Assembly (NCBI GenBank): GCA_900128395.1
Contig: LT649266.1
Span: forward strand, 1-51,846
Length of the DNA: 51,846 bases
Direction: 5' to 3'
Origin: Stramenopiles sp. TOSAG23-2
Taxonomy: Eukaryota
The position numbers and the translations under genes are program-made. This document shows positions 26,515 through 49,031 of the stretch, in pieces (position 1 is the stretch's first letter; the number at the start of each line of letters is the position of its first letter). The notes under the pieces were generated by a model. That model worked only from the letters and a program-made list of their open reading frames with translations, made no database searches and was not told where the DNA came from.

Positions 26515-29286
26515 TTAACTAAATAATTTTAACAAATTCCAACCCTCAGTATCGTCCTGCGAATCTTCTTGTGAACTGTCCCAATCTTGCATTTTTGGTG
26601 GTCGATAGCGTTTTGTGGAAACAATGGTGATTACGCAACCCATATACCGAGCATCTTGCATTATTTCTATCCGAACCGTATCCACCTCCACGTCATTCAC
26701 TCGCAATACCATCACAATTTTATCATCTTCTTCCAAAGTCCCAGTCAAAAATTGATACAATAGTGGCAGAAAATTTCCAAAGGTTAAGGTGTTGGTTTTG
26801 ACTCGCTGCATGATCGTAGTATAATCCCCGTAGTATTCCGCAGCCTGTGGGCTGCGGTACACCAAACTCTGCAACCAATTTTCCACATGCATGTCATGAA
26901 TCACAAACATCCGGGCCTTTGATTCTGGACCATGGACTTGCACCAGTTTCTCCAAAAACTCTTGGTATTGTTTCGGATTAGAAACCTCAGTAGGGTATCC
27001 TTTAAACTTTCGCAGCGTTTTATGCATCCACTCTCGCACATCGTATTCCCCAAAGTCCGTCGGTACTTCTTCTTCGATGACACTTCCAACCAATGCGTGC
27101 ATCGCGTCAATTTCCGGGGTTTTTTCCACGATCACCGCAGTATAAAATTGTTTCGAGGCATCGGTATGAAAGGTTATGGTAAAGGTCCGACACATTCCAT
27201 CCTTGCATTGAATGTCCCGCTCTATTTCTGGAATCCGTCCACTCCAGATCGGCCGTAACACCACGTTCCACATGACGTGCATGGGGTTACGAATTGGTTT
27301 GATATTTGTTGAAATTTCGAAAATATTTCCAAAACAATGTAGAAATTCATCCGAATAATGCAGAGACGTCTCAAAGGTAGACTGCGACAAATCGGAAGTC
27401 ACGTACATTCCCGTGTATCGAGACTGAACTTGCTCTAATGTTATTGAGGATGACGACGGACGATAAAACCATTTCAACACGTTCCATCCCCATCGCGTAG
27501 CAGAAAGAATGGAACTCCCCGATCCATTCAATTTCTTTCGTTGATTTTCGAGATGCAATGGCAAGTTGTAATTCTGCTTTCCCTCCACCACCAGCACGTA
27601 GAATCGCTTGCTCTTCGAGCGGAACTGTCGCAAGACATAGGTATGCATCTTTCCTTCACGCATCACGTCTCGATGTAAGCGTGGGGTCCTTCCTTGCAAC
27701 AATGGTTTCAAAAACCCTGTCCACATAAAGGTGGTGGAGTACCCCTCCTCCCCGAACACGGTATAGATATTTTGCTGGGGCCCGAATTGTTGGACGTATG
27801 CGTTCGAGGCATACACGTGAGAGGCTTCAAACGTTGTCGCTTTTAAATCCCAAATGCAAAACCATGCACGTTCTTTGTACAGGTCCACCATTTGTGCTAA
27901 CGTTCCACCATCACCAGCAAAGTATTGCATCACCTTGAACCCCCACAACGCTATATTCTTCGCAGACAATGTTCCAAACTGATGGGTGGTTACGATTGTG
28001 GGGAAGTCATACTCTGGTGATTCACGTACCAAGCCGCAAACGTATCGGGGGATATTACGATGTTTCACCAATCGAACATCCACAATAATATCCTCGGCCA
28101 ACCGCAACTCAAAGGTACCTTTGGCGATGTTGGCTAGTAACGAGATATAAAACGAGGTGGATCGAAGATTTTCTTTGAACAAATATTCCAAATTGTGATG
28201 GGATTCCGCTTGTGATTTTGGCAAAGTAACTTGAGAATGTGCAAACGTTGATGAGGACAAATCGCCTAGGTGAAAGCATCGCCGGCCTGCGTCCATTCCA
28301 AGTTCGTTTTGTATGATTTGGAGCGGATTGGGTTCTGGGGCTAACGAGGGTATCCCCATCATTTTTTTCACAAAGACAAATACACTCGCTTCCACGAGTC
28401 CACCAGATGGAGACATGGTTTGTTCTTGGTTGCCAGGCACCATGCTCACGTCCAAAGGCAAGTCGTCCTGGTCGATCACATCCAACCAACTTTGTACTGG
28501 ATATCCTACCAGTTGGGATATGGCAAACCGGGCTTTGGTATCGTCGTTGTCCGGTAATGCGGCAAAACATTTGACAGCCGAGGCATCGGTTCCTTGGATT
28601 GTTTCACACAATAGTAATCCTTCTTTTTTCCCAGTATGCCAATACGTACATGAGTTTTTGTATGCAAGTGGCTCACCAACAAGACCAAGTTTTTTCGGCT
28701 TCTTTTGCTTCAACAAGTGTGTCAGCAATACCTTTGCCAACGACGATTTCCCAAAGAAGTGTAACACCACAGTATGGAAATTGATTGTTTGTTGTTGTTG
28801 TTGTAAAGTTTCTTCCACCCGACCCATGAGTTGACTGTTAAGAAAGCGCACAATAACGTCAGTCGGTTGCCCTGTGCTTTCCATGACTTTCCATACTTTT
28901 CGACGCATTTTATTGACGCGTACAGTCCATGGTAAGGTACACAATACAGAAGACTTGTATGAATGACCATATTTTCCATCATGATCCGTCCAAAAAATAA
29001 CACTATTTTTTGTATATCTACGCATCGGCTCGGGCTCTTCCGATCGCAATGTATGGAGTAAATTACCCTTTCGAACACTTACGGTCCAACGATTTATTTT
29101 CTCTTCCGGTATATGAATTTTTTCTCTTTCCAGTTGCAATTGACACGGTACCACCGACTGTTTTTTTAAATACTCATGAATGTCCTCTACCAACGTGTTT
29201 TTCTTTAGTCTTTTCACTATTTTTTTCTTAATTGTTACATCAACCAATGAGGTCTTTTCGTTTCGTCTTTTAGGCTTTCTCTTCAT
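26515..29286 (-). CDS. Orphan 923-aa protein with four tandem PAS-like repeats; GC-richer than its neighbours
   Basis: Long intact ORF with first ATG at 29286 and a basic NLS-like start (MKRKPKRR). It has four ~130-150-aa internally similar units. Spot counts give ~45-50% GC versus ~30% in a neighbouring gene. Confidence 0.8.
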   Translation of the reverse strand: MKRKPKRRNEKTSLVDVTIKKKIVKRLKKNTLVEDIHEYLKKQSVVPCQLQLEREKIHIPEEKINRWTVSVRKGNLLHTLRSEEPEPMRRYTKNSVIFWTDHDGKYGHSYKSSVLCTLPWTVRVNKMRRKVWKVMESTGQPTDVIVRFLNSQLMGRVEETLQQQQQTINFHTVVLHFFGKSSLAKVLLTHLLKQKKPKKLGLVGEPLAYKNSCTYWHTGKKEGLLLCETIQGTDASAVKCFAALPDNDDTKARFAISQLVGYPVQSWLDVIDQDDLPLDVSMVPGNQEQTMSPSGGLVEASVFVFVKKMMGIPSLAPEPNPLQIIQNELGMDAGRRCFHLGDLSSSTFAHSQVTLPKSQAESHHNLEYLFKENLRSTSFYISLLANIAKGTFELRLAEDIIVDVRLVKHRNIPRYVCGLVRESPEYDFPTIVTTHQFGTLSAKNIALWGFKVMQYFAGDGGTLAQMVDLYKERAWFCIWDLKATTFEASHVYASNAYVQQFGPQQNIYTVFGEEGYSTTFMWTGFLKPLLQGRTPRLHRDVMREGKMHTYVLRQFRSKSKRFYVLVVEGKQNYNLPLHLENQRKKLNGSGSSILSATRWGWNVLKWFYRPSSSSITLEQVQSRYTGMYVTSDLSQSTFETSLHYSDEFLHCFGNIFEISTNIKPIRNPMHVMWNVVLRPIWSGRIPEIERDIQCKDGMCRTFTITFHTDASKQFYTAVIVEKTPEIDAMHALVGSVIEEEVPTDFGEYDVREWMHKTLRKFKGYPTEVSNPKQYQEFLEKLVQVHGPESKARMFVIHDMHVENWLQSLVYRSPQAAEYYGDYTTIMQRVKTNTLTFGNFLPLLYQFLTGTLEEDDKIVMVLRVNDVEVDTVRIEIMQDARYMGCVITIVSTKRYRPPKMQDWDSSQEDSQDDTEGWNLLKLFS

Positions 29287-37269: not shown

Positions 37270-38397
37270 ATGAAACATCATTATATATTATTCATTTGTT
37301 TCATCTTATTATTATTATCTATCTTTTCTTTTCAAATTAATGCAAAATATGATAAAAGTAAAAAAACAAAAATGAAAGAATATAAAACAATATCAAAACG
37401 ATTAGCAGAATCATTCGATACGTGTGGTTTAGATATTAAATCAAAACGATCCTCTAGTAGTAATACAATTAGTTTAAGTGATGTTTTTGCAGATTATGAA
37501 TGGGATAGTGTAAATACAAATTCAATGAAACGTCCTCTCGTCGCAGCAATTCATGGTACAAGTAAAACACTTCACACTTTTCAAAATGCCCTTGGATATG
37601 GATATAATGAAGATCAATATCGTAAACATACCATTGATGTTTGTGAATATGTCAATGATTTAGCATCTGGCAAAAGTCAATATGCAATACAAGATCGATT
37701 TATGAGTTATTCAAAGAATGTTAAAAATGATCAACGTATTATTATATATATTGAAAATTTTGCAAAATGTATTACAAAATCAACACTTGTTTTATTAAAT
37801 GTTTTTCTCGATCCTTGGAATGGTGAACGTGCATTTTTAACGACTAGATTTGGAGAAACAAAAATAAGTACAAATATCATATGGATATTAGAATTTAAAG
37901 ATGCAAACATGAAACAATACGATGAAAGGATTTTATCTAGTGATGATTTTCGTAAAGTGTTAGAAAAGATATGGACATCAGATGATACCGGTAATCAACA
38001 AATAACTGGGGAAGCATATTTAGGTCGATTATCACATATTTTAAGTATTGATGAAAATGATAATATCAAGCATGAATGTAATAATTTATTAAAATCAACA
38101 CCATTTGATACAAGTAGTTCAAATAATTATAGTAATACTTCAAGTTCCACTGGATTTCTTACATGGGTTATTGTTGGTATTGTAATGTTAATTGGAATAT
38201 ATTTTGTATTAAATAGTAACAATAGCAATACAAAAAATAATATTAATAAAAAAAATAAGAATCGTCCTGCTGATCCTTTTACATATGCGCCGAAAAGTAA
38301 GAAAACAAGTCCTAGTTCAACAGCTAGAAAAGGAAGAACAAAATCAAAAGGTACAATTAAGAAAAAGACAAGTGAAAAATGGAGCGCCGAGAGATAA
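37270..38397 (+). CDS. Type I membrane protein with a degenerate torsin/LAP1-LULL1-like AAA+ luminal domain
   Basis: Signal peptide; RPLVAAIHG without the Walker A GK; [47 protein letters not shown]; basic tail. Confidence 0.7.
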   Translation: [375 protein letters not shown]

Positions 38398-47102: not shown

Positions 47103-47918
47103 ATGAATACAATGCTTTCGTCTAGAAAAGTGTTACCATTGGATGAAACGAAGCAGAACAATGACAATGTTGATGTAAAGGTTGAATTTGAATTAAAAAA
47201 AAAGCAAGCACCACCACTGTCTAAAATGCCGACTTTAACGACTGAAGAAGAAAAATTATTTAACAAATTCAAACAATTATTAGCAGCGACAAGTGTTGAT
47301 ACCGATGCAGCCAACTATTTAAATCTTGCATATGCGGAAAACGACGAAGATTTAGAGGATCTTGACAATATGGCGAAAGAAATTGTAGACAATCTAGCAA
47401 TTGACTCTGCATATGCACAATTCGAAGATATAAAATTAGGTGCCATTGATATAGTATTGTGTCCAGACAAATCTTTGATATCTAGGCAATTTATGATGCG
47501 TTGTATCATTATCAAAACATTTGAAACAATTTTGTTGTTATACGCATTTGCAAGTGTTCCCGTATACAACAATCCTTTCTTTAATCAGTTTATCAATACA
47601 TCAAATACAGAAACTACTACTACAACATATGTACCATTATCATTTATTATCATTTGTACATTTGCATATTATGTACAATTGAATTTAATGACTAGTATTC
47701 GTAACAGTTTGTTACTAGTGACTACAAAAGACTTTAAACCAATTAAAAATTGGAAGTATCACGTAAAATTTCTTTCTGAAATTATTGAAATATTACTATT
47801 AATTACATTATGCTTTTTTGCATTGTCTACATATATATATGAATATAACTTGGAATTGATTTTCAATGGTATGGCAGTGATATTTATTGCAGAATTTGAC
47901 GAGTTGACGTGTACGTAA
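47103..47918 (+). CDS. Hypothetical multi-pass membrane protein, copy 1
   Basis: Hydrophilic N-terminus followed by about four hydrophobic segments, ending LIFNGMAVIFIAEFDEL; possibly 3'-truncated. Confidence 0.65.
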   Translation: MNTMLSSRKVLPLDETKQNNDNVDVKVEFELKKKQAPPLSKMPTLTTEEEKLFNKFKQLLAATSVDTDAANYLNLAYAENDEDLEDLDNMAKEIVDNLAIDSAYAQFEDIKLGAIDIVLCPDKSLISRQFMMRCIIIKTFETILLLYAFASVPVYNNPFFNQFINTSNTETTTTTYVPLSFIIICTFAYYVQLNLMTSIRNSLLLVTTKDFKPIKNWKYHVKFLSEIIEILLLITLCFFALSTYIYEYNLELIFNGMAVIFIAEFDELTCT

Positions 47919-48215: not shown

Positions 48216-49031
48216 ATGAATACAATGCTTTCGTCTAGAAAAGTGTTACCATTGGATGAAACGAAGCAGAACAATGACAATGTTGATGTAAAGGTTGAAT
48301 TTGAATTAAAAAAAAAGCAAGCACCACCACTGTCTAAAATGCCGACTTTAACGACTGAAGAAGAAAAATTATTTAACAAATTCAAACAATTATTAGCAGC
48401 GACAAGTGTTGATACCGATGCAGCCAACTATTTAAATCTTGCATATGCGGAAAACGACGAAGATTTAGAGGATCTTGACAATATGGCGAAAGAAATTGTA
48501 GACAATCTAGCAATTGACTCTGCATATGCACAATTCGAAGATATAAAATTAGGTGCCATTGATATAGTATTGTGTCCAGACAAATCTTTGATATCTAGGC
48601 AATTTATGATGCGTTGTATCATTATCAAAACATTTGAAACAATTTTGTTGTTATACGCATTTGCAAGTGTTCCCGTATACAACAATCCTTTCTTTAATCA
48701 GTTTATCAATACATCAAATACAGAAACTACTACTACAACATATGTACCATTATCATTTATTATCATTTGTACATTTGCATATTATGTACAATTGAATTTA
48801 ATGACTAGTATTCGTAACAGTTTGTTACTAGTGACTACAAAAGACTTTAAACCAATTAAAAATTGGAAGTATCACGTAAAATTTCTTTCTGAAATTATTG
48901 AAATATTACTATTAATTACATTATGCTTTTTTGCATTGTCTACATATATATATGAATATAACTTGGAATTGATTTTCAATGGTATGGCAGTGATATTTAT
49001 TGCAGAATTTGACGAGTTGACGTGTACGTAA
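48216..49031 (+). CDS. Hypothetical multi-pass membrane protein, copy 2
   Basis: Identical to 47103-47918. Confidence 0.6.
   Translation: MNTMLSSRKVLPLDETKQNNDNVDVKVEFELKKKQAPPLSKMPTLTTEEEKLFNKFKQLLAATSVDTDAANYLNLAYAENDEDLEDLDNMAKEIVDNLAIDSAYAQFEDIKLGAIDIVLCPDKSLISRQFMMRCIIIKTFETILLLYAFASVPVYNNPFFNQFINTSNTETTTTTYVPLSFIIICTFAYYVQLNLMTSIRNSLLLVTTKDFKPIKNWKYHVKFLSEIIEILLLITLCFFALSTYIYEYNLELIFNGMAVIFIAEFDELTCT

Follow-up and report, generated by a model that had tools for sequence, protein, structure and literature searches.

Torsins have been called animal-specific, at least in the excerpts seen of PMC4210606 and 10.1101/2025.11.07.687155, and an excerpt of a further paper describes two kinetoplastid torsin subfamilies (PMC10903960). 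The torsin substrate and the core job of these proteins are still open. Their activators LAP1 and LULL1, according to the parts seen of three papers, have no Walker A motif, a Walker B motif of the form hhhhHR, no small domain, and an arginine, Arg563 or Arg449 (PMC4358337, PMC4999309, PMC7773337). In the portion of PMC4999309 available, conservation in LAP1 and LULL1 is confined to the catalytic face, and a basic extra-luminal part tells LAP1 from LULL1. In ClpB, again from excerpts, Asp685 of the inter-subunit-signalling motif contacts the finger arginine Arg747 (PMC4428496, PMC5415569). Within the literature covered, partly as excerpts and mostly outside subscription journals, there is no report of a torsin activator outside animals and nothing on the family discussed here.

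The locus concerned lies in a stretch of 51,846 nucleotides from a stramenopile genome, the whole of which is here termed the window. An earlier note had read its product as a LAP1/LULL1-like torsin activator with reversed (type I) topology. Judged from its sequence, the protein has a dead ATP site of its own in cis and has kept the face that acts in trans on a neighbouring ATPase, since the cis motifs are lost while both Arg253 and Asp181 are invariant across the 41 aligned sequences.

The gene and its family

The gene matches once in the source genome assembly (32.8 Mb in 9146 contigs), and the GC content of the ORF region is 27-30%. Its neighbours encode an LRR protein, DENR, a SET domain protein and an aminotransferase, with no visible link to the ORF, and the sequencing runs that contain the stretch are mostly marine or seawater metagenomes. 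Contigs from three RNA runs, belonging to three studies, cover the ORF in part and have no joint within it; showing neither strand nor level, they weakly suggest that it is expressed. Elsewhere in the window, two tandem forward-strand ORFs of 271 amino acids (47103-47918 and 48216-49031) share the same weak DUF4226 match and are probably a local duplication, and a reverse-strand ORF of 923 amino acids with no Pfam match (26515-29286) lies within a GC-rich island (44-46% versus about 31%).

The C-terminal end of the protein calls for some care. An extra base at position 38371, relative to the window assembly, is present in all three public runs that cover it, and GTIKKKTR closes all seven near-identical proteins displayed. 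The ending SEKWSAER of the assembled protein, which replaces the usual KKKTR, therefore probably reflects a slip in the assembly or else a rare allele. The usual terminus is of the KKxx type, which we take to fit the di-lysine ER-retrieval pattern; KKxx or KxKxx ends occur in 8 of the 41 aligned members.

Word-based searches and one exhaustive HMMER search gave 48 homologue clusters, of which the 20 that carry organism names are all from oomycetes (Phytophthora, Peronospora, Plasmopara, Hyaloperonospora, Bremia and Globisporangium). The family alignment (A5) combines the window protein with 40 of these clusters, one near-identical copy and seven fragments being excluded, and has a mean column identity of 30%. 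A further search with a more diverse alignment returned 21 matches, none of them a new member, and did not reach the algal clusters of the ESM Atlas. Databases label the family 'hypothetical'; two UniRef labels, 'RxLR effector candidate' on P0069 and 'Protein BIG1' on P0066, look like mislabels for it.

Pfam and PDB sequence searches with the window protein and three alignments gave no match over the cut-off. Weak Pfam matches to AAA_16 in 14 of the 41 rows and to AAA_22 in 8 are hints only, and AAA_2 has no match in the window protein. LAP1_C (PF05609) is absent from the 11 families matched by the window protein and from the 25 shown of 30 matched by the 41 members at E up to 1, and a LAP1_C search of the source genome likewise found nothing. 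No relatives were found in the viral contigs searched, where the lone match to a torsin pattern was due to chance. In the ESM Atlas, two unnamed eukaryotic clusters, in which Chlorophyta are commonest, score 0.84-0.88, above the LAP1_C and torsin clusters at 0.77-0.82; the latter come first among named families in both searches, and all these scores, being under 0.9, are to be read as leads only. The two unnamed clusters (374 amino acids with 60 members and 509 amino acids with 55 members) may be further dead torsin-like proteins.

Protein layout

Features of the locus, with their coordinates in the window
Feature	Position	Strand	Basis and remarks
Single-exon ORF	37270..38397	+	375 aa in the assembly; most near-identical copies have 367-368 aa
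Signal peptide (probable), residues 1-25	37270..37344	+	KD scan; cleavage after INA judged by eye
Luminal lid-less AAA+ alpha/beta domain, HCLR (ClpB-D2/torsin/LAP1) type, residues 33-275	37366..38094	+	AlphaFold2, Foldseek, VIA
Degenerate P-loop position, H95-G-T-S-K-T100	37552..37569	+	no GK[ST]
Walker B position, IYIEN	37744..37758	+	Asn for the catalytic Glu in 41/41
Asp181	37810..37812	+	in or next to the ClpB-D2 inter-subunit-signalling Asp column; invariant 41/41
Pre-sensor-1 beta-hairpin	37816..37869	+	invariant N184-G185-x-R187-A188
Arg253, arginine-finger position	38026..38028	+	invariant 41/41; next to the torsin sensor-2 Lys in the predicted interface
Cys270 closing the domain	38077..38079	+	Cys 8-45 residues after the Arg in 41/41
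Single TM helix, residues 296-314	38155..38211	+	hydropathy (KD 2.63), model, family rows
Basic, disordered extra-luminal tail	38212..38394	+	model, residue counts; one-base slip near 38371 alters the last residues

The layout is that given in the earlier note, in that a hydrophobic N-terminus, an alpha/beta domain at about residues 33-275, one TM helix and a Lys/Arg-rich tail are all present in the ORF. The hydrophobic N-terminal segment spans residues 5-23 (KD 2.57); a comparable stretch occurs in 27 of the 41 alignment rows, many of the remainder being 5'-truncated, and two homologues, P0040 and P0043, are recorded without one. A Ser/Asn-rich linker precedes the TM helix, and the tail behind it holds 18 Lys/Arg against 3 Asp/Glu, with a pI of 11.7 in the near-identical protein P0002. 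Because hydropathy places a TM helix after the arginine in 40 of the 41 aligned members, and an NLS-like basic stretch follows it in 37, the order of signal peptide, domain, TM helix and basic tail is more than chance.

Within the domain, Cys270 probably forms a disulfide with Cys52 (37423-37425), both cysteines being present in 29 of the 30 rows that cover Cys52. Of 36 ungapped rows, 28, the window protein not among them, have an N-x-S/T sequon at the P-loop position. Paired cysteines and a sequon at this position would fit a luminal location.

Fold

The core of the AlphaFold2 model for the window protein (mean pLDDT 79) is an alpha/beta fold of five strands; a hairpin precedes strand 4, a single helix follows strand 5, and a lid is absent. 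The Foldseek comparison proposed in the earlier note did return an AAA+ fold, with ClpC, ClpB-D2 and Skd3 chains ranked first at E about 1e-5. A wide VIA search gave HSP101 14.6, ClpA 14.4, ClpB 14.1, Skd3 13.7 and LULL1 13.3, the last over 214 aligned residues with an rmsd of 5.2, and the best Clp chains (ClpB/ClpC) reach Z 15.4; over LULL1, ClpA, ClpB, ClpC and Skd3 the values for the window domain thus span 13.3-15.4. TorsinA is not listed among the matches of this model, an absence from the list that does not exclude it.

The model of an oomycete member, P0045, is likewise lid-less and has a pLDDT of 85. Of 48,161 chains, LULL1 (5j1s_B; Z 18.0, rmsd 3.4, 208/235 aligned) matches it best, followed in the same search by Skd3 at Z 16.7. 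Against the 1000 chains that Foldseek places nearest, the values are LULL1 18.0, Skd3 17.7, LAP1 17.6, ClpB 17.4 and TorsinA 15.8, such that LULL1, Skd3, LAP1 and ClpB are tied within 1 Z for this predicted structure; Foldseek itself puts Clp and Skd3 on top here too. The alignment with LAP1 (4tvs_B; Z 17.6, 208/222 aligned) ends at residues 258 and 583, respectively, and, if ungapped, would bring the closing Cys of the family to LAP1 Cys582. Structural-alignment identity is 8-12% to LULL1 and LAP1 versus 14-19% to Skd3 and ClpB.

At the level of these models, the fold class is settled as a lid-less AAA+ core of the ClpB-D2/torsin clade. The LAP1-like domain of the earlier note therefore stands as far as an AAA+ fold without a lid and matches to LULL1 and LAP1 are concerned, but not as an exclusive assignment, since Skd3 and ClpB-D2 tie on fold and the tree tests given below do not reject those origins.

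Lost cis motifs and a kept trans face

The earlier note had pointed to a P-loop lacking Walker A, and this is borne out: the P-loop position is without GK, and all four motifs that the note quoted are found in the protein. The pattern [AG]x4GK[ST] is met at this position in none of the 41 rows and elsewhere in three. The GKS at residues 134-136 was rejected as a Walker A motif, as it lies after strand 2, in the wrong place, and is kept in the closest homologues only. All 24 torsins and all 24 ClpB-D2 domains aligned have the Walker A Lys, the Walker B Asp-Glu and the sensor-1 Asn, none of which is kept in the family. Lacking Walker A, sensor 1 and a lid, and with the Walker B Glu replaced by Asn, the luminal domain is, by its motifs, unable to bind or split ATP itself.

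What is kept lies on the other face. The invariant residues are R156, N163, D181, P182, N184, G185, R187, A188, T246, A249, G252 and R253, and those from D181 onwards form the arginine-finger face, which is the best conserved part of the domain. R253 aligns with the ClpB arginine finger, before strand 5, and D181 ends the helix after Walker B, in a register that is good to about one residue. Indeed, the earlier note would have yielded to an unconserved arginine combined with a genome lacking a torsin, and R253 is invariant in all 41 rows. The Cys of the LAP1 motif given in that note, presumably LAP1 C496, faces L180 of the family (Leu in 40 of the 41).

Profiles and tree

Profile and tree comparisons cover torsins, ClpB-D2 and Skd3-like proteins. 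The 24 torsins aligned come from at least 117 metagenome-contig matches and are animal-looking by sequence, and the 24 ClpB-D2 domains come from 23 of 80 loci plus the one in the source genome. By hhalign, the family matches torsins with a probability of 95.1 (E 3.3e-8) versus 79.3 (E 1.5e-5) for ClpB-D2; the torsin score is 59-60, and shuffled torsin columns give 11-20. Over 15 subsamples the scores are 51.8 (36-61) for torsin versus 43.1 (38-49) for ClpB-D2. A profile of the oomycete rows gives torsin 93.3 versus ClpB 3.0, the ClpB alignment being the less diverse of the two (Neff 2.6 versus 4.4). A profile of the six rows nearest the window protein has no torsin preference (11.6 versus 25.8 for ClpB), and alignment A4 preferred ClpB over torsin. 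The profiles, then, lean modestly to torsin over ClpB-D2. In a tree of 42 rows the family and the torsins group together at 95/77, an unstarred node that carries a long-branch warning, and AU tests reject neither a family+ClpB grouping (p 0.09) nor a family+Skd3-like one (p 0.24).

A possible torsin partner

A co-fold of residues 33-276 with torsin P0091, ATP and Mg reached a score of 0.77, the best of three controls being 0.00. The mark used was reached by 51 of 78 solved pairs versus 2 of 108 mismatched ones, and among eukaryotes by 39 of 65 versus 2 of 126. Contacts are shared between runs to at least 83%, and the partner has a pLDDT of at least 73. The partner is a stand-in, an animal-looking torsin from metagenome contigs (Pfam Torsin, E 1.5e-44). 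In the predicted complex, the torsin P-loop (66-69 and 73), sensor 1 (172) and sensor 2 are in contact with residues 245-253 and 181-183, and at sensor 2 Lys283 contacts both Arg253 and Asp181; the ATP itself is unscored. The trans face formed by Arg253 and Asp181 is thus predicted to fit a torsin ATP site. Of the check that the earlier note had proposed, namely whether the arginine reaches the ATP site of a torsin, this gives a predicted placing of the Arg253/Asp181 face on that site, with a stand-in torsin and with the arginine-phosphate contact outside the score. In model terms, the pass is a sign of likeness rather than of binding, and it may be an echo of the solved TorsinA-LULL1 complex (5J1S) or of a generic AAA+ trans interface.

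In the source genome itself, no torsin was found with Pfam Torsin and TOR1A_C over its 9146 contigs, with tblastn using a torsin, with the Walker A pattern GxxGxGKN (20 matches read), with ClpB_D2-small (4 matches) or with the PFLP pattern (84 matches, of which the 27 that have Phe as fourth codon were dropped and the other 57 read), and since the assembly is fragmented and incomplete and the pre-filter loose, this non-detection does not equal absence. A local torsin HMM run on the PFLP-pattern loci had ClpB as its best match. AAA_2 gave 25 matches, and none of the 20 loci translated combines a short signal peptide with one AAA domain; for PF00004, 20 of 109 candidates were scored. The motifs of the best PF06309 candidate, as read by eye, are those of an SF1 helicase, and the TOR1A_C candidate is noise. 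The earlier proposal of a torsin/activator system outside animals keeps its reversed (type I) layout, and no torsin was found for it in the incomplete source genome; that torsins as such occur outside animals was, in the excerpt of PMC10903960, already in print for kinetoplastids.

Two loci met in these searches are of separate interest. The torsin candidate of the PFLP pattern is a histone fusion of 679 codons (contig C2952, 1465-3501, forward strand, locus L326), in the order H2B-H2A-H4-H3 by eye and placed among metabolic genes, with Pfam Histone and Histone_H2A_C confirmed in its last 417 amino acids. Histone quadruplets occur in giant viruses. On contig C2297, a frame of 1190 amino acids (locus L023, 3329-6901, reverse strand) combines an N-terminal region of several hydrophobic segments with an ankyrin-like stretch and a single AAA+ domain of ClpB-D2 type with Walker A and an arginine of its own, in a membrane-bound Skd3-like layout; it is the sole other membrane-linked ATPase of this clade seen in the source genome.

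Proposed function and alternatives

From the invariance of the arginine-finger face and the co-fold, we propose, with confidence evenly divided, that the protein is a type I ER or nuclear-envelope protein whose nucleotide-free AAA+ core, of the torsin/LAP1 branch, activates a luminal ATPase in trans. The luminal domain, without any use of ATP by itself, would present its trans-acting face, such that Arg253, held by Asp181, could enter the ATP site of a luminal ATPase next to it and there trigger hydrolysis by this partner, as LAP1 and LULL1 do for torsin. The C-terminal TM helix would keep the arginine face close to the membrane, and the short basic tail may retain the protein in the ER or the inner nuclear membrane.

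The same domain could be an orphan of the torsin/LAP1 lineage, its partner lost or never present, which serves as an ATP-independent scaffold in the lumen of the ER or nuclear envelope and keeps the Arg-Asp pair for folding, self-association or another partner. We hold this to be possible, if rather improbable. The failure of the genome searches to yield a torsin speaks for it, as do the findings, in the excerpt of 10.1101/2025.11.07.687155, that Walker A and Walker B mutants of torsin partly rescue the fly germline and that the fly activator TorIP is dispensable while the N-terminal cysteines are needed. Oomycete members share with torsins two cysteines, one N-terminal and one before strand 3 (C13 and C126 in torsin), and both are present in 23 of 31 ungapped rows. 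Set against this, it is the whole arginine-finger face that is best conserved and that matches the predicted interface, as in LAP1 and LULL1 (PMC4999309, in the part seen), and a search for Brr6/Brl1 as an alternative partner found none, the control likewise matching nowhere. Descent is a further matter, in that a ClpB-D2 or Skd3 ATPase may have given rise to the domain on a separate occasion, with loss of the catalytic motifs and a move into the secretory pathway, in which case the arginine finger may serve a different ATPase and the family says nothing on the age of the torsin system. The ClpB-like hairpin and finger helix align well, and the higher structural identity to Skd3 and ClpB and the AU tests agree with such an origin; yet oomycete members have a torsin-like helix and a Cys-x-x-R-S-L-F strand entry in place of the ClpB pore loop, their profile prefers torsin (with the difference in Neff given above), and the Atlas, at the level of leads, ranks LAP1_C and torsin clusters first among named families, so that we regard this origin as unlikely.

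Far less probable still is a misreading of topology or place, by which the protein would be at the cell surface or secreted, or its domain would face the cytosol. The effector label on P0069, the recorded lack of a hydrophobic N-terminus in P0040 and P0043, a topology read from hydropathy and the small share of members with KKxx-type ends all lean that way. The conserved TM helix and basic tail and the co-occurring Cys pairs (6/6 and 29/30) oppose it, and presence in free-living marine protists argues against an effector.

There is also a broader reading, for which we can claim only tentative belief: that the pairing of torsin and activator goes back as far as eukaryotes themselves, the family being a stramenopile, perhaps also green-algal, sister of LAP1/LULL1 with a C-terminal anchor, a nucleoplasmic basic tail and, as partner, a luminal ATPase too divergent for torsin profiles to detect. 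[quoted passage not shown] If a hidden luminal ATPase exists, the enzyme-plus-activator design would be ancient and tolerant of an inverted anchor; if the dead module works alone, that would be a pointer to the core function, independent of ATP, observed in flies. In either case, a hitherto unstudied 'hypothetical' family gains a fold and a proposed mechanism.

Comparison with known systems

The active Clp-type ATPases, that is the D2 domains of ClpB, ClpC and ClpA together with Skd3 (human CLPB), share with the family the core fold, the pre-sensor-1 hairpin, an Asp of the inter-subunit-signalling type and the arginine-finger helix. Unlike the family, they are active ATPases with a pore loop and a lid in the cytosol or organelles, and they lack its signal peptide and TM helix.

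Torsins (PF06309, PF21376), including the kinetoplastid torsins and ERIKA as described in the excerpt of PMC10903960, resemble the family in having a signal peptide, a luminal core of the HCLR clade and no pore-loop motif. Oomycete members also share the N-terminal Cys and the Cys before strand 3, and torsin is the best profile match. The catalytic make-up is the reverse: in torsins the arginine finger is missing while Walker A, Walker B, sensor 1 and a GCK-bearing lid are all retained, and what 24 of 24 torsins show as G/K/N of Walker A, DE of Walker B and N of sensor 1 is absent from the corresponding family columns. The C-terminal TM helix is likewise confined to the family.

With LULL1 (TOR1AIP2, PDB 5J1S chain B) and LAP1 (TOR1AIP1, PDB 4TVS) the family shares a luminal, lid-less AAA+-like core with no Walker A, a degenerate Walker B and a strictly conserved arginine finger, as well as a Cys that closes the domain, one TM helix and, as in LAP1, a basic extra-luminal part. 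LAP1 and LULL1 are type II proteins with the TM helix directly N-terminal to the domain, whereas the family is, by hydropathy in 40 of 41, type I with the helix after it, and in place of their long N-terminal domain most members have a tail of 30-70 residues. In LAP1 the disulfide is C424-C582; the family has no conserved Cys column in helix 1, and Cys270 likely pairs with Cys52, in the first helix. At the Walker B position the last residue is Asn, where LAP1 and LULL1 have His-Arg, there is no Pfam LAP1_C match, identity is 8-12%, and no torsin was found alongside. In other words, topology, disulfide partner and Pfam set the family apart from LAP1 and LULL1, while that it nonetheless works as they do is a proposition for which the scales are about level.
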